Source: an uncultured Phycisphaerales bacterium (GTDB lineage: Bacteria; Planctomycetota; Phycisphaerae; Sedimentisphaerales; Anaerobacaceae). Taken from it: a DNA stretch of 64,000 bases. Each line of letters opens with the position of its first letter. The first letter of the stretch is position 1. A model generated the notes under the pieces. It saw only the letters and a program-made list of their open reading frames with translations, was not told where the DNA came from and ran no database searches. The stretch spans positions 512,001 through 576,000 of the forward strand of contig OY970359.1 of assembly GCA_963718665.1 (NCBI GenBank), in the 5' to 3' direction. Positions 32,946 to 61,687 of this stretch are shown in pieces. Position numbers and translations under genes: made by a program.

Positions 32946-33239
32946 GGGAAAATTAGGAAAAACTCAACTAAATATGCCAGTTTGAAAAGCCAGAAGCTTG
33001 ACGCTGATTTACGCCAGTTTGTAAGCGATTTGCTCGTCTTAGGATGTCTTTGACAGTCAGAACTATTGCCCTTCTGAAAAAAGCTGTTTTCTTTCCCCGT
33101 TTAACGATATACTGCCACCTTAGGGCCGGGAGCATAGAATCACATCTCTGTCCATCAACATTGCCGTCCGGCAGATGCCTTTAACCCGTTTTATAGAGAC
33201 TGTATAATCATTGTTATACTTAAGGAGTATGTGTCCGCA

Positions 33240-34427
33240 ATGAAGATCATAACTACTAACGAAGGGCTGAAAAAGAACCTTTCCAGGCTTATTGAAAATT
33301 ACACTAACATTGCGTTTGCAGTAGCGTGGGCATCTGCTAAGACGGAGATATTTCAAGAGCTAAGCGAGAAGCGGTCTCGAATACGTAAAGCAGTCATAGG
33401 CACTCATTTTTATCAAACACACCCCGATGTGTTAGATACTTTTGTTGGATCAGAGGAAGTTCGCTCCATATATCAACCGAATGGTGTTTTTCATCCTAAG
33501 GTCTATATTTTTTGGGATCAAAAGCACTGGGAAATATTAATTGGAAGCGCGAACTTGACTTATTTCGCATTGTATCGGAATTCTGAAGTAATGGTCTTGA
33601 TCTCTGATGCTGATGAAGGCAACTCAACGCTGAAGGAGCAAATCCTCGAACTAATCGAGAACTACTGGAAAGATGCGAGTATTATCACTAAACCTTCGGT
33701 AATTTCATATCGCGCACGCTGGTCGAGGCAGCAACGTTCTTTGCAGCGTTTATCTGGCCAATATGGAAAAAGCACAGCGAAAAAACCTCCTATGGATTCA
33801 TTGGTAGTGTCGATGTCATGGGAACAGTTTCTCGCTTCCGTTAAAAATGATCCTCATCACGAATTTGAAAATCGTCGTAAGCTACTCAAATTAGCCAGAT
33901 CAGCTTTTGATAAGTATGGTCGGTTCGACTTAATGGAAATTGGCTTAAGAAAAACAATCGCCGGACTACCAAACAACTTCGAACCATACTGGGGGTTCTT
34001 CGGAAGTATGAATGGAGCAGGCTACTACCATCGAGCAGTTAATGAAAATAATCGCCACCTCTCACAGGCGCTAGATAAAATCTCATTGACAAATGTCCCC
34101 GTAACACGAGAGCATTACACAGAATATTTGGCTGAGTTTATCAAGGCATTTCCAAACGGCGGGGATGGCGTTGCTGTTGCCAGTCGTCTGCTGGCACTAA
34201 AACGGCCCGACCAATTCGTTTGCATTGATTCAAAGAACAAAAGGGAGCTTTGCAGAAACTTTGGAATAAAACAGATAGGCAAGGATTATGATCGCTACTG
34301 GGAAGAAATCATAGAGCAAATTATGGATTCTGTCTGGTGGAACGAACCCCGACCAAATAACGACATAGACAGTACAGTTTGGGATGGCAGAGCAGCAATG
34401 TTAGATTCCATCTTTTATCGCCCGTAA
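33240..34427 (+). CDS. PLD (HKD)-domain nuclease, NgoFVII restriction-endonuclease-like
   Basis: FHPKVYIF...IGSANLT...NSE PLD signature; AT-richer than flanks; RBS AAGGAG lies just before alternative GTG start 33231. Confidence 0.75.
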   Translation: MKIITTNEGLKKNLSRLIENYTNIAFAVAWASAKTEIFQELSEKRSRIRKAVIGTHFYQTHPDVLDTFVGSEEVRSIYQPNGVFHPKVYIFWDQKHWEILIGSANLTYFALYRNSEVMVLISDADEGNSTLKEQILELIENYWKDASIITKPSVISYRARWSRQQRSLQRLSGQYGKSTAKKPPMDSLVVSMSWEQFLASVKNDPHHEFENRRKLLKLARSAFDKYGRFDLMEIGLRKTIAGLPNNFEPYWGFFGSMNGAGYYHRAVNENNRHLSQALDKISLTNVPVTREHYTEYLAEFIKAFPNGGDGVAVASRLLALKRPDQFVCIDSKNKRELCRNFGIKQIGKDYDRYWEEIIEQIMDSVWWNEPRPNNDIDSTVWDGRAAMLDSIFYRP

Positions 34428-34745
34428 CTTCATATCTAACGGCAACTCTCTCAAACTAAATCTGTATCAATGCTGGCATACCAGAGCATTCTGGCGAGTC
34501 AAATGTTTTTCCTAAATTCTTCTTTCCACCGTGTAATGCCCGTTAATAAAATACTAACTATGAACAACGAGTATCCAGCATCGAGCATCGAGTATCCCAT
34601 TCGTGCCGCTTCGCAGTATTGACTTCCTGACCAAAAACCCATAAGCTATTGCATTCGATTGAGTATGTAACGAACTCGCAGGGCACACAGTTATAATGTT
34701 TTTCTCTGCGGTCTCAGCGTGCTCCGCGGTGAAAGAGGTTTGTGA

Positions 34746-35936
34746 ATGAGCACTAAATACGCGATAATAATACCTGATGGCGCGGCGGATAACCCGATAG
34801 AGCAGTTCGGCAACAAAACGCCCTTGGAAGCGGCTAATACCCCGAATATGGACAAAATCGGCCAGACCGGCCGGCTCGGCGCCGTCCGCACCGTCCCCGA
34901 AGGTATGGAACCGGGCAGCGACGTCGCACAGATGTCGCTATTGGGCTATGACCCGAAAAAATACTACACCGGAAGAGCGCCGATTGAAGCAGTCGCAAGA
35001 AACGTCCACTTATCACCCGATGACTGGGTCTTCAGGTGCAACCTCGTTACTTTCGCAGACGGCAAAATGGCTGACCACAGCGCAGGCCATATATCCACCG
35101 AAGAAGGAACTCGCCTCATCGAAGAGCTTAATGAGCAGCTCTCAAATGATAATATCCGTTTCTACACCGGCGTAAGTTACCGTCACCTGCTCGTCCTCAA
35201 AAATACCGATGTCAACGTCAAGACCTGCCCGCCCCACGATTTCATAGGTACCCCCGTCGAAAAAATCCTCCCAAGGGGCAAGGGTTCAGAATTACTTATC
35301 GACCTGATGATGCGCTCGCAGCAGTTCTTCCACAACCACGATATCAACAAGGTCCGGGCGGACTTAGGCGAAAACCAGGTCAGCTCAATCTGGCTCTGGG
35401 GTCAGGGCAAAAAAGCAAAACTCGAAAGTTTCGAAAAACGCTTCGGCTTAAAAGGCGCAGGCATCACCGCTGTTGACCTCTTCAGGGGACTTGCGAAACT
35501 CATCGACTTCGACCTCATCGAAGTCCCCGGCGCAACCGGCTTTATCGATACCAACTTTGAAGGCAAAGGAGCGGCAGCGATTAAGGCCCTCAAGAATTAT
35601 GATATCGTCATCGTTCATGTCGAGGCCCCCGATGAGGCAGGCCACTCGGGTAATCCCGAAGCCAAGAAAAAGGCAATCGAACAGATTGATAAATACATAG
35701 TAGGCCCGATTTACGAGGCGATTAAAAAATACCCCTCTTGGCGGATTATGGTCCTGCCGGACCACCCAACACCCGTAAAAACCGGCGCCCATTGCGGCGA
35801 CCCCGTCCCGTTCGCTATGGCAGGCGACAACGTTTCGGGCGCTTTTCAGGCCGCCTTCACCGAATCAAACGCCGCAAAATCCGGCTTGCGTATTGACAAG
35901 GGGTATCAACTTATGGAATACTTCTTAAAAAGCTGA
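34746..35936 (+). CDS. apgM: Cofactor-independent phosphoglycerate mutase family protein (ApgM / proposed homoserine kinase)
   Basis: DGAAD, TPLEAANTPNMD, PGSDVA, HVEAPDEAGH, PDHPTP. Confidence 0.88.
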   Translation: MSTKYAIIIPDGAADNPIEQFGNKTPLEAANTPNMDKIGQTGRLGAVRTVPEGMEPGSDVAQMSLLGYDPKKYYTGRAPIEAVARNVHLSPDDWVFRCNLVTFADGKMADHSAGHISTEEGTRLIEELNEQLSNDNIRFYTGVSYRHLLVLKNTDVNVKTCPPHDFIGTPVEKILPRGKGSELLIDLMMRSQQFFHNHDINKVRADLGENQVSSIWLWGQGKKAKLESFEKRFGLKGAGITAVDLFRGLAKLIDFDLIEVPGATGFIDTNFEGKGAAAIKALKNYDIVIVHVEAPDEAGHSGNPEAKKKAIEQIDKYIVGPIYEAIKKYPSWRIMVLPDHPTPVKTGAHCGDPVPFAMAGDNVSGAFQAAFTESNAAKSGLRIDKGYQLMEYFLKS

Positions 35937-35996
35937 TTGGACCGGCTTTTTGAACAGAAACAAGGATTATTTTAAGACAGTTTTAACGGAGTAGCT

Positions 35997-37238
35997 ATGC
36001 CTATACTTGTTCAAAAGTTTGGCGGGACTTCGGTAGCAAACGCCGAGAAAATCCGTCGGGCCGCACAGAAGGCAATAGACGCGACCAAAAAGGGTTACCA
36101 GGTTGTTGTCGTCGCTTCAGCTCGCGGCCACCAGACAGACCATCTCGTGGCGGACGCAATGGAGCTTAACCCGAACCCGCCCAAACGCGAAATGGACCAG
36201 TTGCTCAGCACAGGCGAACAGCAGACGGTATCACTCTTCGCGATGGCGCTGGATGCGATGGGGCAAAAAGCAATCAGCTTTACGGGCTTCCAGGTCGGAA
36301 TGCTCACCGACAGCACGCATACAAAGGCCCGTATAAAGAGCATCGACGCCAAGCGAATCCACAAGGAGCTTAAAGACGGCAAAATCGTAATCGTCGCCGG
36401 CTTCCAAGGCATCGACGAAAACGACAATATCACAACCCTTGGCAGAGGTGGCTCAGATACTACCGCGGTCGCCATCGCCGCCGCTGTGGGCGCAGAGGTC
36501 TGCGAAATTTTCACCGACGTTAACGGCATATACACAACGGACCCGCGCATTTACACAAAAGCCGCGAAAATGAAGGAAATCAGCTACGACGAGATGCTCG
36601 AACTCGCCAGTTTGGGCGCAGGCGTTATGCACAGTCGCAGCATAGAATTCGGTAAAAAATACAACGTAAAAATTCACGTCAGGTCCAGCAGCGAAGACGT
36701 TGAAGGAACATACATTATTGGAGAGGCGGAACAAATGGAAGGAATAGTTGTTTCGGGAGCGACGATACAAAAAGACATGGCGAAAATAACTTTGGTGGGC
36801 ATCGACAATAAGCCGGGCAACGCCGCCAGGGTATTTCACAAGATGGCCCAGGCCAAAGTGGTCGTCAACGACATTATGCAGACCGAAATCAGCTCCGACA
36901 AGGCCAATCTGGCCTTCACGATAGGCACGTCGGACCTGCACTCGGCCAAAGAGGCAATCGCCGGCATAAAGAGCGAGGTAAAGTGTGACAATGTTTTCTT
37001 CCGTGAGGATATCGCGGAGGTCTCGGTTGTGGGCGTCGGGATGAGAAACCACTATGGCATCGCTGAAAAGATGTTCAGCGCATTAGCCAAAGCCAGGGTC
37101 AATATCGACTCGATTACCACAAGCGAAATACGCATAAGCTGCGTCGTCGATAAAAACCAGGCGGAAAAGGCCCTGATAGCAGTTTGCGACGCATTCGATT
37201 TGGATAAGCCAGCAGAAAAAAGAGCCAAAAAGAAATAA
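35997..37238 (+). CDS. lysC: Aspartate kinase
   Basis: VQKFGGTS, TLGRGGSDTTA, two ACT domains. Confidence 0.96.
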   Translation: MPILVQKFGGTSVANAEKIRRAAQKAIDATKKGYQVVVVASARGHQTDHLVADAMELNPNPPKREMDQLLSTGEQQTVSLFAMALDAMGQKAISFTGFQVGMLTDSTHTKARIKSIDAKRIHKELKDGKIVIVAGFQGIDENDNITTLGRGGSDTTAVAIAAAVGAEVCEIFTDVNGIYTTDPRIYTKAAKMKEISYDEMLELASLGAGVMHSRSIEFGKKYNVKIHVRSSSEDVEGTYIIGEAEQMEGIVVSGATIQKDMAKITLVGIDNKPGNAARVFHKMAQAKVVVNDIMQTEISSDKANLAFTIGTSDLHSAKEAIAGIKSEVKCDNVFFREDIAEVSVVGVGMRNHYGIAEKMFSALAKARVNIDSITTSEIRISCVVDKNQAEKALIAVCDAFDLDKPAEKRAKKK

Positions 37239-37294
37239 GCATTAACCCCCCAATAAATTGAGGGGCTAAACACCTGGATTCCCCCTAAGGGGGA

Positions 37295-37951
37295 ATGACA
37301 ACTGCTATGGCGCGATATGCGATGAGCAGACGCATGCGTAATGCCGTTGCCATCATTATTACGCTGACGGCGGCGACATTATGTTTTCTCGACCGTAGTT
37401 ACATCAGCCGGTCATTAACCAAACCCCTGCAATCGAGCCATCAGCAGGATTCCGGAGACGTTTCAAAATATCACGGCAGGCAATTTGCCGTCGTAAAAGT
37501 CGTCGATGGCGATACCCTCGATATCGATATCCCCGATTTATCCGCCGACGGCGGACGCAAATACAGCCATACCAGAATCCGCCTTTGGGGAATCGATACG
37601 CCTGAAACCAAAGACCCAAGAACAGGGCCAATGTATTTCGGCAAAGAGGCATCGGACTTCGCAACCAAACTCGCCCTCGGCAAACAGGTAACTGTTTACT
37701 TGGAAAAAGAGAAGAACAGCAGGGACAAATATCATCAGCTTCTCGCCTATATCCAACTGCCCGACGGGACTTTCCTGAATGAGATTTTATTAAGCGAGGG
37801 TTACGCCTACGCGGATTTGCGATTCAAACACGGCTTATATAATAAATACAAGCAGTTGGAATCCGTCGCCCGAAGCCGCAAGATTGGCCTCTGGGCAAAT
37901 GTAACCCCCGAACAAATGCCTAAATGGCGGCAACAGAAAATCAAAAATTAA
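37295..37951 (+). CDS. Membrane-anchored thermonuclease (SNase) family protein
   Basis: VVDGDT, RIRLWGIDTPE, DKYHQLLAY, GLW; true start may be 37307. Confidence 0.9.
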   Translation: MTTAMARYAMSRRMRNAVAIIITLTAATLCFLDRSYISRSLTKPLQSSHQQDSGDVSKYHGRQFAVVKVVDGDTLDIDIPDLSADGGRKYSHTRIRLWGIDTPETKDPRTGPMYFGKEASDFATKLALGKQVTVYLEKEKNSRDKYHQLLAYIQLPDGTFLNEILLSEGYAYADLRFKHGLYNKYKQLESVARSRKIGLWANVTPEQMPKWRQQKIKN

Positions 37952-38192
37952 AATGCAAAAGGCAAAATTGCGGTATCCCTATGGGATGATATTCTAACCA
38001 CAGGCAAGCTCCCCCGATAAAGACATTCGAGGGCAGGCAGGGCAGGCCGCTGAGGTAAATAATTAACACCGATTTATTTTAGACGCTGATTAACACGGAT
38101 GGAAACGGATTTACACGGTTTTTTCGCCGCGTCTTGAGTCGGAGCTAAGCTTATTAATTCAAACGACTAACCTTCCGATAAATATTCCCATC

Positions 38193-41100
38193 CTACGGTG
38201 GCCCCCACATCGTAGGATCGTTTATCCGTCGTATTTCTCTAAATACATCTATAGGATCTAGGGGTGTTATAGGGATTGAAAGCTGCAAGCGATCCAAATC
38301 ATTTTCCGATATACTATCTTGGGGACCGACCGAATCCGCCTTCACCAGTGGCTGATCACGAAACGTTAGCAACTCGTTGTATTGGTCAATATCCTTTTGA
38401 CTGGTATAAACAGCACTAGGGTATACGTATGATAAAGCTTGTAAGATGCTTTCTGTCATTCGTTCCATTCTGCTGTAGGCACCATTGGTGAGAGAGTCCC
38501 AGTAAATTCTGTCTATTTCTTCCTGTTCTCTTTCTCTTACCAACCAATCAGATATCCAGTCTCCGACAGTACATAAACCTAATGGGTCGATTTCATTAAC
38601 CGGATTATTCAGGCAATAAAGATACAAATTTGGTCCATCGGACATACCGGTGGGGTCCTGGGTAATGAAACGGCCAACTTCGGGGTCATAGTATCTTGCA
38701 CCGAAGTAAACCAATCCTGACGCGTCGAGCTCTTTGGTTAAGAATTGGTGCGAATTATCGGCCGAGCCGGTTTGAGCAACAATATTTCCAAAGGCATCGT
38801 AGCTATAACTTTGTGCAATTGCGCCGGAGGAGTCAGTCAAGTTTACCACGCTTCCCAAGCCATCGTAATGGTAATACTGCGAAGCGGACTGCTCACTAAT
38901 AATCCCGCCGATTCCGCCCGCCGCATAGGGATTGCGCAGGTAACTGGCGGTAGTTGTGCCGGCTGCATTGCGCTCCAAAATCACGTTAAGACCCTCGTAA
39001 AGATAATTTGTGGTTGATGAACCACTTTCAACTGAGATTCTTTTCCCTTCGCCGTCGTATCCGTAAGTTTCGCTGACGTCGGTAGAAGTAAATTGAACAA
39101 GATGATTTCTTGAGTCATAAGTTAAATTTGCGGTCTCGTCTCCCTGCTGCTTCTCAACCAGGTTGCCGTTTTTATCGTAAGTATAGATTATTTGTTCTTC
39201 GCCGGTAATCTGCTCATCAGTAAGCTGGTTTAAGGCGTTATACGAATAATTATGCGTGATTCCATCTTTAATCATCTGTGTGCGGTTACCTGCAGGGTCA
39301 TAAGCATAGCTAATCTGATAAGAATCAGCCGCAGAAGTTTTGCGCTCCTCAGTTAATTCTCCCTTGGCATCATAAGTATAATCAATTTCCCCATCCAGCG
39401 TTGTAACACTGGTTCGCAGACCTCTTATGTCATAGATATAGCTAAATTCAGCGAGTTTCGTAAAAGGTCTTTTTGCCTGCTGTTGAGTAAGTTTAGTCAG
39501 GCGGTTCATACTATCATAGGTATAAACTGCGTTTATCTTGTTTGGATAAGCCAATTTCACCAAATTGCCCAGCTTGTCATAAGTGTAGCTGGTGACTTTT
39601 TTCTGGGAGTCGGTGAGAGAAATTAAGCGGTTTAAGGCATCATATTTGTATTTAGTGATTTTTCCGTCGGGGTCAGTCAAGGTCAGGCGGTTGCCAGCTT
39701 TATCATAGGCATAGCTTACATTATCATTTGCTGCCGGGCCATCAACTTTAATCAGCCGTCCGAGTTTATCATAAGCATAACCGGTGGTCCCTTGCGCATC
39801 AGTCATTGAGATTCGCCTGCCCAGGGAGTCGTAAGCATAACTAACCTCTGAATCAGGATAAATAATTTCAATCAGGCGATTAAGGTTGTCGTATTGATAA
39901 GTGGTAGTTTGTCCTTTGGCATCAACTGAAGCAATACGGTTTCCTGCGGCATCATACTGGTATTGCACTTCATTACCCAAAGCGTCGGTTCGCGAGATTA
40001 AACGATTGAGGCTGTCGTATTCATAAGAAGTCCGGTTATTATTCTGGTCAGTTACAGAAATTAAATTCCCTTCTGTATCGTAAGCATAGTTAATCACATG
40101 GCCTGAAGCATCAGTTGTGGAAGTTACTCGATGGTCCTGGTCATAAGTATAGTAAGTGGTGTTGGCATTAGCATCAGTTACGGAAATTCGATTACCTGCT
40201 TCATCATAGGCATAGCTTACTGAAGACCCATCGGGATAGGTGACTTGGGTAAGCTTATTCAGCTCATCGTAATCAAAATTTGTAATATTATTTTTTGCGT
40301 CTTTGACTTGCGTCAAGTTTCCTACACCGTCGTAAGTAAAAAGTGTAATTCCTTTTGCAGCATCACTCTTGAGGGATAGGTTGCCTTGAGAATCATAGCC
40401 AAAAAGAGTTTTCTTGCCTAATTGGTTGGTTGCACTTATTGGCTGGCCGTAAATATTGTATTTATAGGAAACTGAACCGGCGAGAGCATCTACAGTTTTG
40501 GTAAGATTACCATACTTATCATAGGTATTAGTGGTAATATTGCCCTGCGCATCAGTAAAGGTTTGCAATAAGTTAAAGTTTGCCTCGTAATTAAATGAAG
40601 TAAGATTACCCTTGGGGTCGGTAACCCCGGTCAAATTGCCTTTCGCATCGTATTCCATGCTGGTTGTGCGGCCCAATTCATCGGTACGGGAGGTAAGATT
40701 TAAGTTACTATCCCATGTTGAGAGGATTTGGCCGCCTTGAGGATTGACTACTTTGGTGATTAGATAATCACTGTTATAGTAATGCACTGTCTGGTTGCCT
40801 CTGGAATCGGTAATTGTGGTCACGCTGTCAGCAGTATCAAAACTTAAGCTTGTGTAATTATTGTTGCCCTCGCCCGTAGAAGATGTGCAGCGGCCTGAGT
40901 TGTCAAAAGTAAAATATACCGAATCTCCCCTTGGATTGGTCTTCCTGGTGAGTTTGTGATTTGAGTCGTACTGATAAGTGGTTGAATTGCCCTTGGGGTC
41001 GATAACGCTGGCTAAGTTGCCGGAAGAATCGTATGTATAATCATAATTTCTTCCTACCGGGTCGGTTATCTGGGTTAGCTGGTTTGAATCGTTATAGCTT

Positions 41101-42173
41101 AAATTAATTACGCGTCCTGCGGTATCGGTAATTTGAGTGAGGTTATTCTTAGCGTTATAACTAAATGAAATAACGTTGCTATTGCGGTCTTTTATTTGCG
41201 TAAGCTTCCCGGAAAGATCAAAAATATATTGTTTACCATCTTTCTTGCGCCAGCTATAGTTAGTCGAGGCCTTGGTTAAGGTGGAATATTCACCTCGCTG
41301 GGCAGTATATGTGCCGTCTAAATTATCAGCAAATAAATAACCCTTTGCCTGCTCATCTTTTATTTTGACGAAATTAGCGTCGCCAAAACCATCATCCATT
41401 TCTAAATAAACATTATAACTATGCGTCCATCCAAAACCCAAAGGCTCTTCCGTTTCTTCCTGACTGTTATACGTGCGGACAAATTCAAATTTCAGGCCCC
41501 GCCCGGGTATAGTTAAGTCGGGGGTGATAACATACATATTGCCGGTTACGGAGTTTATAGGGTCGCCGACGGACGGATTTGGGGATTCCCCATTCGTGGC
41601 ATCAATAGGAGGATCTGGCGGCTCCGGCGAAGGTGTTGGAAAGTGTATCATCGTGATTGTAAATACACCAGCATTTTGCCCTATGAATGTTGCATACGAA
41701 TTAAGCTCCGTGTCTGTATCACTTGATGAGTAATTATCCTGAAAAGTACCTGATATTGTCTTATTTAAAACTGTGCCGACAAAATTACTAACTTCTGTGG
41801 CCGTTCCGCTCCCTTCCGAATCATTGTAATTGCTGGTATATGTGGTTGTAAAAGTTATCGAATTACCAGTTACCTTCCCTGTTAAAGTTGCACTCGTCGT
41901 TCCAGAACTATCGCTAGTATTAGAACCGCCGCTGAGAGTCCCATCGGGAGCTTGGTTTATCGTAAAATTATCATTAGGAAAATCAGGAAACGCAACATCA
42001 CGACTACTTGTATTCTGAGTTCCATCGGAAAGTGTCAATGTGACAGTTTCTGTCAGGTTTATGGTGGAAGGCGTAATAGTTGTATCCCAAACTCCCGATA
42101 CATCCGCATTCGTGGCAAAGGCAAAATTACTATTGCATAAGCAAAACAAAACTACTAATAAAATCCTTCTCAT
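38193..42173 (-). CDS. Secreted Rhs/YD-repeat protein with variable C-terminal domain
   Basis: Signal peptide, GDPINSVTGN...RTYNS...FGWTH (DUF6531-like), many YD repeats, ARYYDPEVGRFITQDP, NPVNEIDPLGL. Confidence 0.93.
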   Translation of the reverse strand: MRRILLVVLFCLCNSNFAFATNADVSGVWDTTITPSTINLTETVTLTLSDGTQNTSSRDVAFPDFPNDNFTINQAPDGTLSGGSNTSDSSGTTSATLTGKVTGNSITFTTTYTSNYNDSEGSGTATEVSNFVGTVLNKTISGTFQDNYSSSDTDTELNSYATFIGQNAGVFTITMIHFPTPSPEPPDPPIDATNGESPNPSVGDPINSVTGNMYVITPDLTIPGRGLKFEFVRTYNSQEETEEPLGFGWTHSYNVYLEMDDGFGDANFVKIKDEQAKGYLFADNLDGTYTAQRGEYSTLTKASTNYSWRKKDGKQYIFDLSGKLTQIKDRNSNVISFSYNAKNNLTQITDTAGRVINLSYNDSNQLTQITDPVGRNYDYTYDSSGNLASVIDPKGNSTTYQYDSNHKLTRKTNPRGDSVYFTFDNSGRCTSSTGEGNNNYTSLSFDTADSVTTITDSRGNQTVHYYNSDYLITKVVNPQGGQILSTWDSNLNLTSRTDELGRTTSMEYDAKGNLTGVTDPKGNLTSFNYEANFNLLQTFTDAQGNITTNTYDKYGNLTKTVDALAGSVSYKYNIYGQPISATNQLGKKTLFGYDSQGNLSLKSDAAKGITLFTYDGVGNLTQVKDAKNNITNFDYDELNKLTQVTYPDGSSVSYAYDEAGNRISVTDANANTTYYTYDQDHRVTSTTDASGHVINYAYDTEGNLISVTDQNNNRTSYEYDSLNRLISRTDALGNEVQYQYDAAGNRIASVDAKGQTTTYQYDNLNRLIEIIYPDSEVSYAYDSLGRRISMTDAQGTTGYAYDKLGRLIKVDGPAANDNVSYAYDKAGNRLTLTDPDGKITKYKYDALNRLISLTDSQKKVTSYTYDKLGNLVKLAYPNKINAVYTYDSMNRLTKLTQQQAKRPFTKLAEFSYIYDIRGLRTSVTTLDGEIDYTYDAKGELTEERKTSAADSYQISYAYDPAGNRTQMIKDGITHNYSYNALNQLTDEQITGEEQIIYTYDKNGNLVEKQQGDETANLTYDSRNHLVQFTSTDVSETYGYDGEGKRISVESGSSTTNYLYEGLNVILERNAAGTTTASYLRNPYAAGGIGGIISEQSASQYYHYDGLGSVVNLTDSSGAIAQSYSYDAFGNIVAQTGSADNSHQFLTKELDASGLVYFGARYYDPEVGRFITQDPTGMSDGPNLYLYCLNNPVNEIDPLGLCTVGDWISDWLVREREQEEIDRIYWDSLTNGAYSRMERMTESILQALSYVYPSAVYTSQKDIDQYNELLTFRDQPLVKADSVGPQDSISENDLDRLQLSIPITPLDPIDVFREIRRINDPTMWGPP

Positions 42174-42979: not shown

Positions 42980-43588
42980 ATGACTACTATCCAAATCAAA
43001 GTTCCAAACTGGTTAGACCTTGCTTTCGTTTGGCCGGTTTTGCTTTATCGACAATGGAAATACGGCTATTCGTTTCGGAAGATTTTTATAGGCGAAGGGA
43101 GATTCGCGATTGTCGAGCCGACGGATTACTACCGGCTAAATAATTTTCACTGGTGCATAAGCGTAAGCAGGAGAAATATCTATGCCGTTCGGCTCGTGCT
43201 GACAGATAACTGGCAGTTGAAAAAGGTGCGAATGCACAGGGAGATAATGAACGCGCCTGACGGGCTTCTGGTGGACCATAAAAACGGCAAAACCCTTGAT
43301 AACAGAAGATCGAACCTGCGATTAGCTACACATTCTCAGAACATGTGCAACAAGCCAAAAACAAGCACAAAGAGCACGTCGCGGTTCAGAGGGGTTTATT
43401 TGGATAAACGCAAAGGAAGGTGGGTTGCCAAAATCCAAATCAACAGAAAATGTATATGGCTTGGGTATTTCGACAATGAAATCGACGCGGCAAAGGCATA
43501 CGATACGGCGGCGAAAATGTATCACGGGGAATTTGCCCACCTGAACTTCCCGGAACCACAGATTACACAGATTTCACGGATTATTTAA
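42980..43588 (+). CDS. HNH endonuclease with C-terminal AP2 DNA-binding domain
   Basis: VDHKNGKTLDNRRSNLRLAT; SRFRGVY...WLGYFDNEIDAAKAYD...GEFAHLN. Confidence 0.92.
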   Translation: MTTIQIKVPNWLDLAFVWPVLLYRQWKYGYSFRKIFIGEGRFAIVEPTDYYRLNNFHWCISVSRRNIYAVRLVLTDNWQLKKVRMHREIMNAPDGLLVDHKNGKTLDNRRSNLRLATHSQNMCNKPKTSTKSTSRFRGVYLDKRKGRWVAKIQINRKCIWLGYFDNEIDAAKAYDTAAKMYHGEFAHLNFPEPQITQISRII

Positions 43589-50984: not shown

Positions 50985-50989
50985 AATGT

Positions 50990-51790: not shown

Positions 51791-51913
51791 ATCATTTCAC
51801 CGTGAAAAGCAAACGGAATTTTAAAATTAATTACAAATCTTTGAGTGAAAAAATGAATCAGAAAATTCCGTATCAGCCTATCAAAACTTGGCTCGAATCT
51901 AAAGATTTCAAAG

Positions 51914-52177: not shown

Positions 52178-52328
52178 ATCTTCTCATGGCGATACGAAAG
52201 ACACGGCCGTTCTTCTCACGGCGATATGAAAAACACGTCCGTTTTGAGAATAAAAAGCAAACCTTAACGACCTGTGTTAGAATATAATCAATATGTTTTG
52301 ATTCAAAAACAAAAGGAAAGGACCGGTT

Positions 52329-53495
52329 ATGTGCACTGTGAAATTCATTAAAACAATTGTCTGTTTCATAATCGCTTTGTCGGCGTTAACATCCCCGGCA
52401 CAGGCCGAGGCCTGGAAATTCGGCGTTATGGGCGACACCCAGTGGACGTGTCCTAACGACCCGGCGGGCAAAAATCCCGACCGCGTCTCCAAATCAATCA
52501 TCGACCAGATAAACCGCCAGTTCATCGACGCCAGGGTAAAATTCGTAATCCAGGTCGGCGACCTGACGGAAACCGGCACCGACGCCGCCGAGACGGTCCG
52601 CGCTAATGCTTCCCAGCCACTTTATGACGCCGACATAGGATTCTTCCCTATGCGCGGCAACCACGAGACCTACTCCCCCATACCCAACGGCTACGCCATT
52701 GCGGCCTTGCAGTCGAATTACCCGCAGACACGAGGTATCAGCAACACCTTCGGCGCCGCCAATTTCAGCAGTCCGACCTCGGTCAGCGCCGATCTGAATG
52801 GCATGAGCTATTCCTTCGACTACGGCGACCCGTGCAACAACGCCCGTTTCGTCATCATCGATAATTGGGCGACGCCGAGTAAAGACGTTAAAGTCGCCGG
52901 CCTCAAAGATATCTATTACGGCTACTCCATCGGTGAGCAGCAGGCCTGGATAAGCAGCCGGCTTGACAAAAACACACGCGGCACTGAGCATGCGTTTGTT
53001 TTCTCCCACCAGCCCCTAATCGCAGAGAACCACCAGGATTCTCCTTTTATTGGCTACACGAACGCCAACCAGGAAATGCAGAATGCCTTCTTTGCCTGTC
53101 TGCAGAACAATGGCGTAAAATACTACATCTGCGGCCACGACCATATGCACCAGCGATCCATAATTACCAGTCCGGACAGCAACTCCCGCGTCGAAGAAAT
53201 AATCTGCGCATCCTGCAGCAGCAAATTCTACACCCCCAAAGACCCCAATGACTTCAGGTGGTATAGCCAGAAAGTCCGCGAGAAGTCCTTATCCAGGGAA
53301 ATAAAACATGTCGGCTACTATATCTTCACCATCGATGGACCGCGAGTGACCGTCGATTACTATTCCGACAACCATGGCAACTGGCAGTCGGACGCCGACT
53401 ACCCCAACGGCCCCAATGACGTTAACAACCAGATAACCCCCGCCTTCCATTTTGTTAAGAAAGAAACCTGGGGTTATACTCTCAGCGGAAAGTAG
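52329..53495 (+). CDS. Secreted calcineurin-like metallophosphoesterase
   Basis: Signal peptide, GDTQW, VGDL, RGNHE, GHDH. Confidence 0.85.
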   Translation: MCTVKFIKTIVCFIIALSALTSPAQAEAWKFGVMGDTQWTCPNDPAGKNPDRVSKSIIDQINRQFIDARVKFVIQVGDLTETGTDAAETVRANASQPLYDADIGFFPMRGNHETYSPIPNGYAIAALQSNYPQTRGISNTFGAANFSSPTSVSADLNGMSYSFDYGDPCNNARFVIIDNWATPSKDVKVAGLKDIYYGYSIGEQQAWISSRLDKNTRGTEHAFVFSHQPLIAENHQDSPFIGYTNANQEMQNAFFACLQNNGVKYYICGHDHMHQRSIITSPDSNSRVEEIICASCSSKFYTPKDPNDFRWYSQKVREKSLSREIKHVGYYIFTIDGPRVTVDYYSDNHGNWQSDADYPNGPNDVNNQITPAFHFVKKETWGYTLSGK

Positions 53496-53764
53496 CTCCT
53501 GATTTGGGCAAGGATGGCCATCAAACGTCGTTAAGAACATATTACAGGTTCTAACATCGTTCCGGAGGAGCGACTATTTCACACTATTTTTACGTTTGAT
53601 GTGTAAGAAGGTGATAGTCGAACAGATGAGCTTGCGCAAATGCGGTCAACTGTTCACCCTTCAGCTGTTCAAATTGCGGTATTGCAGGTTATGAGCGGCG
53701 TTTTTTTGTTAAAAAACCGCTTGCAGGGAGTCGATAATAGAGATTATAATAGGCGGCAGTTTGT

Positions 53765-53836
53765 GCGGGTGTAGCTCAGTGGTAGAGCGTCACGTTGCCA
53801 ACGTGGATGTCGTGAGTTCGAGCCTCATCACCCGCT
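53765..53836 (+). tRNA. tRNA-Gly (GCC)
   Basis: GCGGGTG/CACCCGC acceptor stem, TAGCTCAGTGGTAGAGC, TTGCCAA loop, GTTCGAG; upstream TTGCAG-N18-TATAAT. Confidence 0.95.
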
Positions 53837-54109
53837 GTTAGTAAGTCGTGCCTCGTGGCTCGGCCCACGTGGCTCGTTTTTATCGAGCGACGAGTAACGA
53901 GAAACGAGCGATAGTTATGCATCAATGATGTATTGGTTTTACGCAACAAATTATAGTGTCGGCGAGTTACCGGCTAAATGAGTAGTTTGGCGTTGGTCGC
54001 CGACGCGTTTGGGCAACGAAATATGGAAAAAATGTGGCTGCGGGAATCAGGGTTCCTAATGCCATTTTTGTTTTGTATGAGCGTAAGCCCGGTACGATAG
54101 GAGAATAAC

Positions 54110-55627
54110 ATGGCAGAGCAACCACAGGAAACAACCCCAAAGAACACCGTAAAAATCGAACAGTCAGGCCCGTGCAAAAAGAAGGTCATTATCGAGGTCC
54201 CTCGTGAGACGATAACAAAGGCCACCGACGCCCAATACGAAACGCTGCGCAAAGACGCGCTGGTGCCGGGTTTCAGAAAAGGTCGTGCGCCGAAACGATT
54301 GCTGGAAAAGCGATTCGGCAAAGAAGTCGGCGAGCAGACAAAGCTGAAAATACTGGCAGAAGCGAGCGATTCGGCAATAAAGGACAACAAGCTGGATGTT
54401 TTGCGCGAGCCGGAGATTGATTATGAGAAGATAGAATTGCCCGCGGAAGACGCCCTGAAGTTCGAATTCGAGGTTGAGGTGCGTCCTGAGTTTGAGCTGC
54501 CAAATATCGAGGGCATACCGGTCGAGAAGCCAAAACACGTGGTAACCGAAGGAAACGTTGACAGGGAAATCGAGATGCTCTGCAAATACGCGGGGACGTG
54601 GACGCCTAAGGACAACGGCAAGGTTGAGCTTGAAGACCAGGTCGTCGCGGACGTGATGCTGAATATCGAGGGGCAGGAACAAAAAGTTGATAACACCGAA
54701 ATATACGCCAGGCCGAGCGGCTTTGTGGCGGAGGTGCCCGTCGAGAAATTGGACGAAATCATAGTTGGGGCAAAAACGGGAGACGTAAAGACCACGGAAG
54801 TGGAAGTGCCCAAGACATTCTTCAGAGAGGACCTGCGAGGCAAAAAGGTCAATATCAAGCTAACAATTAAGGACATCAAGTGGCTAAGACCAGCGGAACT
54901 GAATCAGGACACGATAAGCAAATACGGCGTGGCGACCGAGGAAGAGCTGCGAAAGGCGATTCGCGAAAAGCTTCAGAGCCGGCTCGAAGGCCAGGCGAAA
55001 AACGAGATGGCCGAGCAAATTTACAAATACCTGCTGGACAACACCAGCTTCGATTTGCCTTCAGACGTTGCCGCGGACCAAGCAGTCGCGTTATTACGAC
55101 GCCAGTATATCAACCTGATGATGCAGGGCATTGACAAAGAGCAGATTGACAAGAATATTGAGCAGTTGAAGGCGAACACCGAGCAGCAGGCAAAAGAACA
55201 GCTCAAGGTGTTCTTCATAATGGACAAAATCGCGGAAAAGTTGGATATAAAAACGACGGACGAGGAAATCAACGGGCATATCGCCCAGTTAGCCGTCCAG
55301 AAACACATCAGGCCCGAACGAATGAAAGAGGAAATGCAACGGGATGGTTCCCTCGAACAGTTCAAGCTTCAGGTCCGCGAACAAAAGTGTGTAGCCAAAC
55401 TGCTTGAGTCGGCGAAAATAACCGAAGTTGAGCCAAAGGCGCAAAAACCGAAAGCGGAAAAGGCCGAAACACCCAAGCACAGGAAAACGACCGAAAAAAC
55501 AGAGGTCAAACCTGCTAAAAAGGCCGAAACCGCGACAAAGCCGGCGCATCCCAAAAAAGCAAAAGCCGCGAATGAGGAAAAGCCGGCGAAAAAGACAAAG
55601 CCGACAACCCGAAAAAAGAAAACCTGA
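54110..55627 (+). CDS. tig: Trigger factor with Lys/Ala/Pro-rich C-terminal tail
   Basis: VPGFRKGRAP ribosome-binding motif; upstream of clpP. Confidence 0.95.
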   Translation: MAEQPQETTPKNTVKIEQSGPCKKKVIIEVPRETITKATDAQYETLRKDALVPGFRKGRAPKRLLEKRFGKEVGEQTKLKILAEASDSAIKDNKLDVLREPEIDYEKIELPAEDALKFEFEVEVRPEFELPNIEGIPVEKPKHVVTEGNVDREIEMLCKYAGTWTPKDNGKVELEDQVVADVMLNIEGQEQKVDNTEIYARPSGFVAEVPVEKLDEIIVGAKTGDVKTTEVEVPKTFFREDLRGKKVNIKLTIKDIKWLRPAELNQDTISKYGVATEEELRKAIREKLQSRLEGQAKNEMAEQIYKYLLDNTSFDLPSDVAADQAVALLRRQYINLMMQGIDKEQIDKNIEQLKANTEQQAKEQLKVFFIMDKIAEKLDIKTTDEEINGHIAQLAVQKHIRPERMKEEMQRDGSLEQFKLQVREQKCVAKLLESAKITEVEPKAQKPKAEKAETPKHRKTTEKTEVKPAKKAETATKPAHPKKAKAANEEKPAKKTKPTTRKKKT

Positions 55628-55774
55628 GCGTAAGAATATCCGATATTTAACAGAGCACAAGTGCAACAGTGCACAAAGGCAAAAGAGCACAAGTTGAAAA
55701 ATTACTTATTCCTTATGCACTTGTGACTTATGCTCTTGTGACTTACGACTTATGACTTATTAAGGAAAAACTTG

Positions 55775-56458
55775 ATGTTCAGCACAGGACCTGAAAAACA
55801 TATGATAATTGAGCCGAAGGGACAGTACCAGGACCAGTACGGGCCGGGAGGCGGTCATTACCAGCAATTTCGCCAGATGAGTTTGGATGATATGCTGCTG
55901 GAAAACCGGATTGTGTTCCTCATCGGCGAAATCAACTACGCCAGGGCTACCGAGGTAATAATGAAAATCCTTTACCTCGATAACCAGAAACGCAACACGG
56001 AAATCAGCTTGTATGTGAACTCGCCGGGAGGCAGCGTTGACGACACGATGGCGATATACGATACGATGCGGTTCGTAAGCTCTCCTATTGCTACTTATTG
56101 CATTGGTCGTGCGCAATCTGGCGGAGCGATAGTTCTCGCGGCGGGAACAAAAGGCAAGCGGTTTGCGCTGCCACATGCAAAGATTATGCTTCATCAGCCG
56201 TGGGGCGGAGTTTACGGCCAGGCGGCGGATATAAAGATTCAGGCCGAAGAAATCCTCAAGGCCAAGAAAATGCTTAACGAGCTGCTTGCCAAGCTCTCAG
56301 GCCAGCCCGTTGAAAAGATTATCGCGGAGACCGAAAGAGACAGGTATTTGACGGCGGACGAGGCGCTCGCATACGGACTCATCGACGAGGTCCTGGAGCT
56401 CGACGAGTCAGGCAAGAAAAAACCGGACGATAAGAAAACAGACGAGAAAAAACAATAA
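55775..56458 (+). CDS. clpP: ATP-dependent Clp protease proteolytic subunit (paralog 1)
   Basis: YVNSPGG, GRAQSGG, MLHQP, ERDRY. Confidence 0.93.
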
Positions 56459-56478
56459 CCACTAAAGAAAGTGAAACT

Positions 56479-57111
56479 ATGGCAGTTGACCAGAACTTAG
56501 TTCCGATAGTAATTGAAAAAACAGGTCGCGGCGAACGGGCATACGATATTTACTCCCGGCTGCTTAGAGACAGAATCATTTTTCTGAGCGGGCCGATAGA
56601 TGATATTTCCGCCAACCTGATTATAGCTCAAATGCTGTTTTTGAGCAACGAGGACAGCAAGACGGACATTCATCTCTATATCAATTCGCCCGGCGGGTCA
56701 ATCTCGGCAGGACTGGCCGTTTACGACTGTATGCAGTTTTTACGCTGTGACGTGGCGACCTATTGCATAGGCCAAGCGGCGAGTATGGCTGCGGTATTGC
56801 TGGCGGGCGGCAAGGCGGGCAAACGATTCCTGCTCGCCAACAACAGGGTGCTGATTCATCAGCCGTTGATTTCGGGAGAGCTGATTGCCCCTGCGACGGA
56901 CCTTGAGATTGAGGCCAGGGAAATAATGCGTCTGCGCGAACGGCTATACACAATACTATCCAAACACACAGGCCAGTCAGCGGAAAAAATCGAGAAGGAC
57001 TGCGACAGGAACCTCTGGCTGGACGCGAATGAAGCGATAAAGTATGGTCTGGCGGACAGAATAATCCAAAAGGCGCCGGAAATGGTCAAATCGGCAGACA
57101 AGGAAAGCTAA
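56479..57111 (+). CDS. clpP: ATP-dependent Clp protease proteolytic subunit (paralog 2)
   Basis: [29 protein letters not shown]. Confidence 0.95.
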
Positions 57112-57122
57112 ATTTGAGAATT

Positions 57123-57766
57123 ATGTTCTTAGTTCGTAGTTCATTGTTCGTTGTTTCATTAGTATCGCTGGCATTCGCGTTTGGATGCGATAGCGGCACA
57201 GCCGGAAAACCAACGTCTTCACAGCAGGTCCAGCAGCTTACCTCGCAAAATACAGAGCTTCAAAATCAGCTCGAACAGACCCAGGTGGAAAACGCCCAGC
57301 TATTAAAACAGGCGGAGTCACTTTCCAAACTGCCGGGGGATAAAAGGGCCGACGCGATATATCACCTCAAGTCGGTCAAAATCGGCAGGTTCACAAACTT
57401 TTATGATGACGACAAGACCCCGGCGCAACCGGAAAGAAAAAGCTGGTCGTTTACGTTGAGCCGATTGATGAGACGGGCGACATCGTAAAGGCGGGCGGAG
57501 CTGTTGAGGTCCAGCTCTGGGACCTGAATAAAAAGGAAAATGAAGCCCGTTTAGCACAGTGGCAAGTTGAGCCGAATGAGCTTAAGACGCTCTGGCTGGG
57601 CGGGATGTTTTCGAGCAGCTACCGGCTGAGTTTTGATGCGGCCGGAATTGTTGACAAGTTCGACAAACCATTGACCGTAAAGGTCAACTTCACAGATTAC
57701 CTGTCGGGCATGACGTTCACAGAACAATTTATCATTCGCCCGCCACAACCCGCCAGCAAAAAATAA
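57123..57766 (+). pseudogene. Lipoprotein gene split by a 1-nt frameshift (possibly a sequencing error)
   Basis: Lipobox AFGC; one extra C in run 57418-57421 joins ...DDDKT to GATGKKKLVVYVEPIDETGD...PASKK*. Confidence 0.7.
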
Positions 57767-57959
57767 CCACCCCCCGCCGCTGTAATCATCTCCGCACCTG
57801 CCAAAATTCCTCAGAAACCAAAAATGAAATTCTCTGTATCCTCTGCCTACCCTGCCTGCCCCGGCAATCCGTAGGCCAGGGAGCAAGCGTAGCGCGTCGA
57901 AGGGTGGCTAAAAACTTCGTGTGTCTTCTTTTTCTCCGTGGTAAAGTAATTCGGCAATT

Positions 57960-59822
57960 ATGTCAAAAACGAAACTATCAAAACTATTATCAAAGCAGGT
58001 AGTTCTGGCTGACGGGGCGATGGGAACGATGCTCTACCAGTCAGGCGTCTATATCAACGCCTGCTTCGATGAGCTGAATCTCAGCAACCCCAAACTTGTA
58101 ACCAAAATCCACAAGCAATACGTCGAAGCCGGCGTTGACTTCATCGAGACCAACACCTTCGGCTCAAACGAGGTCAAGCTCGCTAAATATGGCCTGGCTG
58201 AACAAACCGAGAAAATAAACACCGCCGGTGTCAAAATCGCTAAACAGGCAGCAGGAGATAGCGTGTTGGTTGCTGGGGCTATCGGGCCTCTCGCACGCGA
58301 TATCGCCCTTTACAATCAAATATCCAAACAGCAGGCAATCTCCGCCTACAAAAAACAGGCCAAAGCGTTAGCAGATGCCGGCGCGGATTTCCTCATCCTC
58401 GAAACATTCTCGAATACTGATGAGCTAATACTGGCTATCGGGGCCGTATATAGCGTAACCGACCTCGAAATCGTCGCCCAGATGACCACTACCGAGCTAA
58501 ACGAGACGCCTTATGGCGAAAAAATCGACCAAGCAATCAGCCGAATCTCCGCTCAAAAAGGCGTAACTGCCGTGGGCCTCAATTGTTCCGTAGGCCCATC
58601 CGCGATGCTAAACGCCCTCGAACTAATCCACGCCGCCACCAATAAGCCCATTTCCGTCCAGCCAAACGCGGGGCTCCCCCGCCAGGTCGAAGACCGACTC
58701 CTTTATATGTCCACACCCGAATATATGGCGGAATTCGCAAAGCGATTCTACGAAAAAGGAGCACGAATCATCGGCGGCTGCTGCGGCACAACGCCCGACC
58801 ACATAAGAGAAATGGTTCGCGCAATCCGCGCAATCGACAAGGCCGCGACATCAAAGACACGATTGGGCGCTGTAACAATCGAAACACCAAAAATAACCGA
58901 AGTGCGCGAAACACCTCTGGCGGAAAAATCGAAGTTCGCGGCCAAACTCTCAAAAGGCCAAAAGGTAACCACCATCGAAATCACCCCGCCCAAAGGCCTC
59001 GATATCGACCCCATCCTCGAAAAAGCGAGGGCCTGTGCCGATATGGGTATCGACGCTATAAATATCCCCGACGGCCCACGCGCAAGCTCACGATTATCGC
59101 CAATGGTTACAGCCGTAAAAATCCAGCAGGCCGCCAACATCGAATCAATCCTGCACTTCTGCTGCCGCGACCGAAACCTCATCGGTATGCAATCCGACAT
59201 CCTCGGCGCATACGCTATCGGCCTTCGCAATATGCTCGTCATCACAGGCGACCCGCCAAAAATGGGCGACTATCCGCAGGCAACAGGCGTGTTCGATATG
59301 GATTCAATCACGCTGACGGGCGTAATCAGAAATCTCAACCGCGGGATTGACCTGGGCGGCAACCAGTTCAGCCCACCTACTTCGCTGGCGATAGGCGTCG
59401 GCGCAAACCCCGTCGCAACCGATATCAAACGCGAAATCGATAAATACCACCAGAAGGTCTTAGCGGGCGCGGAATTCGCAATCACCCAGCCCGTCTTTGA
59501 CGCTGATACGCTTTTGGGCTTCTTAGATTCGACTAAAAAATCGAAAATACCTGTCATTGCCGGTATCTGGCCCTTCACCAGTTTGAAAAACGCGGAATTT
59601 ATGGCAAATGAAGTCCCCGGCGTTGTAGTGCCCGCCAAATTATTGGAACGAATGAGCGCAGCAAAGACCCAGCAGCAGGGAAAAATCATCGGCGTTGAAA
59701 TCGCGAGGGAATTGATTGACCGGATTAACGACCGCGTCGCGGGATTCGCCGTGAGTGCACCCTTCGGCAACGTTAAAATAGCGCTGGCCGTCTTGGGCAA
59801 AATCGAAATCGATAAAATCTGA
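57960..59822 (+). CDS. yitJ: Bifunctional homocysteine S-methyltransferase / methylenetetrahydrofolate reductase
   Basis: DGAMGT, GLNCS, IGGCCGT, then CRDRN, ITGDPP, AITQP. Confidence 0.93.
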   Translation: MSKTKLSKLLSKQVVLADGAMGTMLYQSGVYINACFDELNLSNPKLVTKIHKQYVEAGVDFIETNTFGSNEVKLAKYGLAEQTEKINTAGVKIAKQAAGDSVLVAGAIGPLARDIALYNQISKQQAISAYKKQAKALADAGADFLILETFSNTDELILAIGAVYSVTDLEIVAQMTTTELNETPYGEKIDQAISRISAQKGVTAVGLNCSVGPSAMLNALELIHAATNKPISVQPNAGLPRQVEDRLLYMSTPEYMAEFAKRFYEKGARIIGGCCGTTPDHIREMVRAIRAIDKAATSKTRLGAVTIETPKITEVRETPLAEKSKFAAKLSKGQKVTTIEITPPKGLDIDPILEKARACADMGIDAINIPDGPRASSRLSPMVTAVKIQQAANIESILHFCCRDRNLIGMQSDILGAYAIGLRNMLVITGDPPKMGDYPQATGVFDMDSITLTGVIRNLNRGIDLGGNQFSPPTSLAIGVGANPVATDIKREIDKYHQKVLAGAEFAITQPVFDADTLLGFLDSTKKSKIPVIAGIWPFTSLKNAEFMANEVPGVVVPAKLLERMSAAKTQQQGKIIGVEIARELIDRINDRVAGFAVSAPFGNVKIALAVLGKIEIDKI

Positions 59823-59942
59823 CAAAGGATTTCACCGCATGGCTTGGCCATCCCTTGCGGGAGAGAACGCTGAGAACGCAGAGTTTCTTAGACACGGATT
59901 AACACGGATTTACACTGTTTTATGCATAGCAAAGGAACTGGT

Positions 59943-60557
59943 ATGCAAAAGCAAAACTTAGCGAGAGAACTGAGTGTTGAACTTATCGCGATAACGCCAG
60001 ACCCGCAGAAGGTAATCGAGCAGGCGGGAAGGACGTGCTATTTGAGTTTCGACAAGATGGACGACAATTCGCAGGCCGGCTTCATCAAACGCCTCATCAA
60101 AATGGGCCACGAATCACCGCTCGAACACGCATACGCGACTTTCAGAATCAAAAACTGCTCCCGCGCGATGACGCACCAATTAGTAAGACACCGCCTTATG
60201 GCTGTCTCACAGCAGTCCCAGCGATATTGCGACGAAGAGGAATTTACCTACGTTGTGCCTGAAAGTATGCCAGCAGAATTGGTTGACGAATTCCATAACG
60301 ATATGAAAACGATACAGGAAATGTATCGCAAATGGCGTGACAAAGGGCTAAAGAAAGAGGACGCCCGCTTCGTCCTGCCCAACGCCTGCACAAGCGAAAT
60401 CGTCGTCTCGGCCAATTTCCGTGAATGGCGGCATATCCTCACCGTCCGCACAGACAAAGGCGCACAATGGGAGATAAAAAAAGCGGCCCACCTGATTTTA
60501 GACACCCTGAAAAAACTCGCCCCGGCCTGCTTCGAGGATATTATTCCGGAAAAGTGA
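59943..60557 (+). CDS. thyX: FAD-dependent thymidylate synthase
   Basis: GHESPLEH, RHRLMAVSQQSQR, EDARFVLP, AQWEI. Confidence 0.96.
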   Translation: MQKQNLARELSVELIAITPDPQKVIEQAGRTCYLSFDKMDDNSQAGFIKRLIKMGHESPLEHAYATFRIKNCSRAMTHQLVRHRLMAVSQQSQRYCDEEEFTYVVPESMPAELVDEFHNDMKTIQEMYRKWRDKGLKKEDARFVLPNACTSEIVVSANFREWRHILTVRTDKGAQWEIKKAAHLILDTLKKLAPACFEDIIPEK

Positions 60558-60710
60558 TGCCACAGATAATATAGATTTTTAGCTACAGAGGACACAGAGA
60601 GCACAGAGAAAATAAAAGTTAAAATAATTGCTTTTATTTCCACTTTGACTATATACTGCCGCCTTAAGACCGGAAGATATGACTTTCGTGCTGTAATGGG
60701 AATGAGTATT

Positions 60711-61575
60711 ATGTCTCAAGATGATTCCAAGAAAAAAAAGGAACAAGATGGAATTAGCAAACATCCTAAATCACCTGCCTTCAACGTAATTCCGCAATAC
60801 CCCCGAAGTAATCGATTATCATTTAATAAGTTCTGATGGCGGCAAGCATTGGGAAAAACGCCCGGGCTTACTTAGTGCAATAATTTGTGGCACCAAACCA
60901 GAAGATTCAGACCCTGCCATTCATGCCATAATTGACCCAATTATCAAAAAAGTTGTATCAGAAAATGACAACCAATTATCTCAGAAACTACATGATTGCG
61001 TCCATAAGTTACATGGGGTCAAATATCATCTTGAGACAATCCAGAAGGAGATAGCAAAACGAGTCGATGAACTTCGAAAGAATTATTCGGCGGGATCCGG
61101 AGTTTCAACTGAAATAAAAAATCCCAGACTCGTATATGAAACCGAAGCTTTTCTATACCAAGTAAAAAGTAGTTTAGATCTCCTCGTTCAAGCTCTTGGC
61201 TCCCGAATCCCTCCACTTACATCGATGCCAACTTTCAAGAAAAAAACCGTTGACGGGGTAAAACATGCTGGAGGTGCCGTCATAGACGCTCTATCCAAAA
61301 ATGGCTTTCCTGCATTAGCTGAACTTTTTGAAAAATACAGATATCAATGGATTCAAAAGCTTGTTGATATGCGTGACACAGTGGCCCACTATAGCCAATT
61401 AAAAGGGTTCCATTGTTTTATTGAGGAGCCTTTTTTGGGTAAGGGACAAATAACTATTCATTTTCCAGCTATGCCGACAGGGGAGAGAGTAGATACCTAT
61501 TGCGAGGAAACATATAAAAATCTTTTAGACCTTTATAATACAGTGCTTAATATGATGCCTGATCGTAAAAAATGA
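60711..61575 (+). pseudogene. HEPN-domain (Cthe_2314-like) protein split by a 1-nt frameshift
   Basis: Frame open 60790-61575 with EAFLYQVKSSLDLL and RDTVAH (Rx4H); joins the MSQDD... frame if one C is removed from run 60800-60804. Confidence 0.6.
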
Positions 61576-61597
61576 TGCGTTGTTTTTTAGAGTTTGC

Positions 61598-61622
61598 CGT
61601 CGGGGTAAACCCCGACCTGCAA
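61598..61622. repeat. GTAG-type REP hairpin, copy 1
   Basis: CGTCGGGGTAAACCCCGACCTGCAA; 22/25 identical to 62309-62333. Confidence 0.8.
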
Positions 61623-61687
61623 TTTGCTTTCCTTTCCATTTTGACGATAGACTGTAATTTTATGGCAGGAAGAAACGGATATGGTAT

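Follow-up and report, generated by a model that had tools for sequence, protein, structure and literature searches.

A 49-bp module that recurs three times in a 64,000-nucleotide stretch of DNA from an uncultured Phycisphaerales bacterium (assembly GCA_963718665.1, contig OY970359.1, positions 512,001 to 576,000; hereafter the window, with positions counted from its first letter) likely belongs to a spread-out system of gene capture and expression, because its copies head foreign genes that vary among relatives and many of them are fused to docking sites for which no enzymes were found. In the interpretation that we consider reasonably probable, the module forms the core of a promoter, likely of the sigma-70 type and specific to this lineage, which is often fused to an integron attI site or to the right terminal repeat of a TIRYT element and from scattered positions likely drives the expression of acquired genes, the cargo of the attI copies likely being loaded by integrases from elsewhere. 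A first-pass annotation, made from the sequence alone, had taken the 49-bp segment itself for a capture platform; the segment is better regarded as the promoter part only, with the capture sites, which belong to known systems (attI and the TIRYT repeat), located downstream of it.

The three segments, which start at 33084, 60628 and 61624, align without gaps, as had been noticed at the outset, with pairwise identities of 36/49, 34/49 and 36/49; in 30 windows that were shuffled locally, the top match to the 60628 copy was 26-29/49. The 2.61-Mb source genome contains nine additional copies that match at 32-40/49, with non-members reaching 30 at most, and a profile search added a 13th full copy, two 5' half copies (one of these in the window; Table 1) and, elsewhere in the genome, one 3' half accompanied by the leader described below. 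The family in this genome therefore totals 13 full copies, which are scattered. Hereafter, P denotes the 57-nt core that includes the 49-bp segment. A sequence-only model built from 39 P copies detected P in all 24 genomes of the genus (1-17 copies each) and in 21 of the 151 genomes of the family, spread over 17 of 91 genera; under stricter filters, none was detected in 150 other genomes drawn from the class, and a pattern search located a single copy outside the family but within the order. Loci were fetched for ~110 of the listed copies.

Of 103 copies, 62 have TATACT as the -10 hexamer, 19 have TATAAT and 11 have TATATT; within the -35 hexamer, the TTG is 88-99% conserved, and the spacing between the two hexamers is fixed. 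Together with the established consensus, this conservation pattern likely reflects selection on a sigma-70 promoter, even if the -35 hexamer is weak apart from the TTG. The first gene lies on the same strand as P in 101 of the 112 copies that have a gene within 800 nt. Both the orientation and the conservation of P agree with the role of a cassette promoter (Pc); the consensus scan calls only a second promoter at copy 1 (33181-33208, 10/12 match), which overlaps attI. The arrangement is modular: P is followed by an optional leader (A) and then often by one of three stereotyped ends, denoted T1, T2 and T3.

At copy 1, located between hom and apgM, P and the leader run into T1, which is identified here by sequence as the end of an integron attI site. 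At least 123 stretches from Planctomycetota, Desulfobacterota and further phyla contain the exact T1 pattern. The core of integron sites is GTTRRRY, and in 80 of the listed loci the final GTT of T1 is followed by a purine at +1 in 72 cases, G at +2 in 53, a purine at +3 in 58 and a pyrimidine at +4 in 59. An integrase match is present upstream of T1 in 10 of these 80 loci; among the 123 listed loci, T1 lies 147-150 bp past the 3' end of a co-oriented intI gene in 11, only one of these 11 genes being full-length, and none has an intI on the strand opposite T1. The assignment of T1 to attI follows from the match of the trailing bases to the integron core and from the position near co-oriented intI, and because such an intI precedes T1, the clade appears to have the layout of the Treponema-type integron, in which intI is transcribed towards attI (PMC3607928). 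Among the copies in the window, the attI GTT core is present at copy 1 only.

In a relative, G008, the sequence at the same hom-apgM site matches that of the window along P, A and attI; the two part directly after the GTT, where G008 carries, in place of the PLD-domain nuclease gene, two other genes that each end in a bottom-strand hairpin with attC architecture. The case for attC in G008 is based on architecture rather than energy, since the folding z-scores are only -0.5 and -2.0. The comparison thus shows gene exchange exactly at the attI GTT. G008 fits the arrangement of single or paired attC sites without a nearby integrase (CALIN/SALIN-like), and the window copy has no intact attC. In a survey of this site in 21 relatives, five carry P with five different first genes and three are empty; the remaining 13 contain different inserts, have different neighbours or lie on short contigs. 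One read-derived contig, possibly from the source itself, covers 32173-35157 without differences; the best read matches come from freshwater sediment metagenomes of one study.

The second type of docking site is found at copy 2, located between thyX and pepD. Y1 transposase genes of 5 of the 24 genus genomes are flanked by inverted repeats, the 3' copy of which is T2 or T3, and both ends fit the GGGGWSAS consensus of TIRYT terminal repeats (PMC3733652, PMC6006769), in degenerate form at copy 2; by these sequence features, T2 and T3 are assigned to the right terminal repeats of TIRYT elements. At some loci, an inverted copy of T2 or T3 also follows the cargo. T2 carries a ribosome-binding site and an ATG and so would supply the start of the HEPN-like gene at copy 2; close homologs of the encoded protein start with the T2-encoded residues, whereas a distant homolog does not, and T2 behind copy 2 is clearer in a metagenome contig from a relative (L332). 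The protein, assigned to HEPN in the first-pass annotation, has only sub-threshold Pfam HEPN hits and one RxxxxH motif; PADLOC gave no match for it, and in this assembly the gene has a 2-bp deletion near 60795 (60789-60800) relative to the intact homolog, the gene being intact in L332 and in a second metagenome contig, L331.

Copies 2 and 3, which stand in tandem, had been likened to an array. In L332, however, P, T2 and the intact HEPN-like gene are directly followed by the membrane protein gene with no second P, whereas L331 has the HEPN-like gene, the REP-like palindrome, a second P and then a different gene. Given these two arrangements, the tandem in the window is a mosaic in which copy 3 changed its cargo without a docking site, rather than a cassette array. 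Of 22 relatives surveyed at the thyX-pepD site, 10 are empty, five carry P with other genes, two carry cargo without P, and five are rearranged or uninformative. Comparison of filled and empty alleles revealed no shared repeat at the upstream boundary of P and no duplication, as would be expected of a miniature inverted-repeat transposable element or another non-autonomous transposon.

Weight matrices applied at 12 bits within 260 nt downstream of P recognise a docking site behind 52 of 111 copies, compared to 0 of 111 upstream controls. By type, with some overlap, there are 12 T1, 32 T2 and 11 T3 sites, the T1 matrix having been trained on outside genomes, whereas the T2 and T3 counts are partly circular because their matrices were trained partly on these loci. 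The source genome (94.6% complete) has no match above the cut-off to the intI model TIGR02249, and integrase queries gave tblastn matches of at most 30% identity, so that the initial remark that no integron integrase was in view extends to the whole genome. The TIRYT queries likewise gave no tblastn match in this genome, the two PF01797 hits of which are of another type. The intI gene was found in 12 of 301 genomes of the order; the only genome of the genus with an intI match, G004, has before apgM a solo copy of the attI that belongs to this intI, without P.

The genes downstream of the three P copies in the window have a G+C content of 0.43, 0.39 and 0.37, compared to 0.50-0.53 for thyX and apgM, in agreement with the initial impression that they are AT-richer. 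Across the 112 copies, the median for first genes is 0.40, and 82 are below 0.45, compared to 150 of 1,727 long open reading frames (ORFs) genome-wide. Tabulated as the first-pass annotation had proposed, the first genes form 99 families, 92 of which were seen once. Among 94 family representatives (five long ones were left out), PADLOC at an E-value of 1e-10 or better matches 16, several of them via generic domains (a raw count), and leaves 78 unmatched; Pfam adds Abi_alpha, RES, Nmad2, DUF4062 and HNH, and also catalase, aquaporin, GLUG proteins and a transporter. The proposal that the cargo consists of foreign, possibly anti-phage genes accordingly holds for their AT-richness, their variability and a partly defence-like content, but the cargo also includes secreted, transport and stress proteins. 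Tandem paralogous secreted proteins with GLUG motifs, several with a P of their own, were observed at loci L012, L013, L016 and L085.

When 103 copies were grouped by flanking genes into ~65 sites, 15 of the 16 sites with several copies showed different first genes (one grouping may be loose). The similarity of P is 0.77 for same-site pairs with different cargo (51 pairs), compared to 0.67 for other cross-genome pairs and 0.68 within genomes, the pairs not being independent. Because P copies of the same site are more alike despite their different cargo, P seems to persist while cargo turns over. The same block of P, A, T2 and gene is also present at two different sites, with homology from the first bases of P. 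Judging from these alignments, P appears to be both platform and passenger, rather than a permanent platform everywhere. The idea of a dispersed capture and expression platform is thus sustained by the different genes that relatives carry behind the same copy and limited by the empty alleles and by the blocks at different sites.

Under the interpretation of P as a promoter head for acquired genes, P would be transcribed and would head the cargo. The attI copies would be loaded by a co-oriented (Treponema-type) IntI, since lost or visiting in trans, whereas the copies with a TIRYT repeat would mark genes delivered or swapped through TIRYT ends. Ordinary recombination via short dispersed repeats, and via P and the leader themselves, would carry blocks of P, site and cargo to new intergenic hotspots and replace some of the cargo. 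Given that most P copies look decayed, capture is probably occasional rather than continuous.

Several observations weigh against this interpretation, in addition to the partial circularity of the T2 and T3 counts. When scanned with a plain sigma-70 consensus, P is not recognised as a promoter, on account of its poor -35 hexamer. No docking site is recognisable behind 59 of the 111 copies, copy 3 included, and at copy 3 the cargo swap seen in L331 has its point of divergence within the tail of P rather than at a docking site; empty alleles have no P, and at some sites the same gene is retained in different genomes. Few canonical attC sites occur near P: a relaxed heuristic gave five hits downstream and five in the reverse control, one of them convincing, and the possible attC in the window does not adopt an attC fold when the full stretch is folded. 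The enzymes are sparse among relatives as well, with intI limited to 1 of 23 relatives within the genus (1 of 41 close relatives), where it lies at the edge of a contig in a genome with 7% contamination, and TIRYT elements of the matching type in only 5 of 24 genus genomes. Finally, the joint that removal of the cassette would leave was not seen in the contigs of four DNA runs of one study.

These observations bear on an alternative that we regard as unlikely, namely that decayed integrons and TIRtrons gave rise on a few occasions to the fusions of P to attI and to the TIRYT repeats, which have since become inert, all present turnover being due to homologous or illegitimate recombination via P, the leader and neighbouring repeats, without a site-specific enzyme. 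The truncated or degenerate docking sites, the failure to find the enzymes in the source genome and the swap inside the P tail agree with such an origin, as do a leader tail duplicated around an inserted unit at one site, the blocks that recur at different sites from the first base of P and the ComEC gene of the source genome. It does not readily account for the divergence exactly at the GTT next to genes that end in attC, or for the attI ends that are also found repeatedly between the genes of two-gene inserts, an arrangement known from functional cassettes with a truncated attI (PMC12901181). Less probable still, in our estimate, is that P combines a promoter with an operator or a leader RNA, serves a regulon for stress or defence and is selected for co-regulation, unlinked to capture. 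The tail of P past the predicted start is indeed better conserved than the -35 hexamer, and the leader can form a 6-bp stem; yet no covariation was found in that stem, the only Rfam matches in the window are tRNAs, and a structured cis-regulatory RNA was rejected on these two counts. A regulon would moreover have targets that are almost all different (92 of 99 families single) and in 11 of 112 cases antisense, and would leave the fusion to two kinds of recombination sites unexplained.

The window also encodes a 200-aa HNH-AP2 endonuclease (42980-43588), which is present in 28 other places as well (~29 copies, from 29 tblastn matches in the source genome). We give little credence to the possibility that P and its cargo form the passenger end of a larger mobile unit driven by this endonuclease, which would spread flanking DNA through cut-and-repair homing. 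Such a unit would explain why 29 of 118 P loci have the gene downstream in the same orientation and none has it on the opposite strand, and why one and the same cargo block is followed by it at different sites. However, the gene is also found upstream in seven loci, is not within 3 kb of most P copies and is at least 9.9 kb from the three copies in the window, and its strand bias could reflect the direction of transcription. Each HNH-AP2 copy has a conserved upstream region of its own, and the gene looks like a separate multicopy mobile element. It is adjoined in the window by a gene for a 1,326-aa RHS-repeat protein (38193-42173).

Three further candidates were rejected. The P tail and leader are not recognisable as an eroded 3' end of intI, with scores within the random range (19% of 300 genomic windows reach the median intI) and with the intI stop region matched only by the last bases before attI in a few copies; P is not the native intI promoter, with no matches in 137 intI/attI loci; and a by-eye match to the dif/Xer consensus is poor. 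The features of the window that are discussed here are listed in Table 1.

Table 1. P copies, docking sites and associated genes in the window
Feature	Position	Strand	Remarks
P 5' half copy	31625..31655	+	Identical to the 5' half of the orthologous G008 copy; 1.4-kb insert before copy 1
P copy 1	33076..33132	+	A-tract, TTG -35-like hexamer, 18 bp, TATACT, conserved tail
Leader module A	33133..33184	+	Conserved part 33141-33175; optional in the P family
Predicted truncated attI (T1), last ~31 bp	33185..33215	+	41.9 bits; predicted crossover G/TT between 33213 and 33214
PLD-domain nuclease gene, cassette-like	33240..34427	+	Starts after the GTT core; Pfam PLDc_2, RE_NgoFVII
Possible decayed attC	34434..34511	+	Box spacing right by eye; L-box 5/7
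Short dispersed repeat	60559..60617	+	Opens the whole insert directly after the thyX stop; inverted partner 62408-62447
P copy 2	60620..60676	+	
Decayed TIRYT right terminal repeat (T2), by sequence	60697..60725	+	16.0 bits; control maximum 12.1
HEPN-like gene	60713..61575	+	ATG at 60713; carries a frameshift near 60795 in the present assembly
REP-like palindrome before copy 3	61589..61629	+	Direct repeat 62300-62340
P copy 3	61616..61672	+	Docking site not recognisable
Gene for 151-aa membrane protein, widespread unnamed family	61688..62143	+	
46-aa proline-rich ORF	62158..62298	+	Co-inherited with the membrane protein gene

Several additional observations concern the surroundings of these features. 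Upstream of copy 1, a 1.4-kb insert (31656-33075) interrupts P after base 31 and brings a new 5' half; it encodes a 199-aa protein with a weak match to sigma-70 region 4, and nothing similar was detected in the genome or in the fetched loci. A small GIY-YIG-type ORF (31299-31610) lies between hom and P and is also present in G008 and G003. The source genome contains three more solo attI sites without P, one of them nearly full length (G000:C1 2110317-2110458, 985668-985798 and 2022303). Brocadiaceae (L142, L146, L186, L193, L204 and other anammox records) have several attI sites per genome and only short 3' remnants of intI. With respect to Y1 transposases, locus L254 has one with a different repeat type, which occurs twice upstream in direct orientation, and at L068:3937-5355 a Cas12f/TnpB-like gene immediately follows a copy of P whose T2 is degenerate.

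In the textbook integron, one integrase serves one attI and one promoter, whereas in the present case there are many expression heads, separate from the enzyme, and heads of the same family also precede the TIRYT end repeats. As a tentative extension, to which we lean less than to the promoter-head interpretation itself, P could define a distributed, enzyme-agnostic capture network, in which one promoter head is combined with docking sites for two unrelated recombinases, the tyrosine integrase IntI and the HUH transposase TIRYT, and visiting enzymes of either kind load genes at a dozen sites of the chromosome, the TIRYT transposase acting as a second cassette integrase whose end repeat supplies the translation start. 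If the sites are live, TIRYT transposases would have a role in the acquisition of genes that can be tested, and the system would illustrate how defence genes of low G+C content come to be expressed. Should the sites be fossils, P can still serve in practice as a bait for new defence genes, considering how many cargo families were seen once or went unmatched by PADLOC.

Compared with the integron platform of the Treponema type (PMC3607928), copy 1 is alike in its promoter, its attI end of the co-oriented clade and a cassette joined at the GTT, and the system differs in having no intI, 13 dispersed heads, a truncated attI, no attI at most copies and no P beside any of the 137 intI loci. CALIN/SALIN and attG insertion (10.1101/2022.09.11.507474) share with it single or paired cassettes away from an integrase and a nearby promoter; here, the target is a repeated, attI-derived one with a repeated promoter rather than an arbitrary attG, and attC is mostly lost. 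The attI ends between genes and the two-gene inserts resemble truncated-attI-type cassettes, which have been described in class 1 and 2 mobile integrons with the integrase present (PMC12901181). As for TIRtrons and TIRYT elements, T2 and T3 are 3' terminal repeats of Y1 genes of the genus, but behind P they occur without a transposase and border unrelated cargo, and gene capture is not described in the accessible parts of the respective sources (PMC3733652, PMC6006769). In the literature searched, mainly outside subscription journals, no description of the module, of dispersed attI heads or of gene capture by TIRYT was found. Neisseria minimal mobile elements and repeat-mosaic intergenic regions likewise place variable inserts between conserved genes in a repeat-rich setting, whereas the inserts described here bring along a common promoter and sites for recombinases. 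Each part is thus of a known kind, and what is new is a single promoter family shared by two unrelated types of site, both of which are represented in the window.

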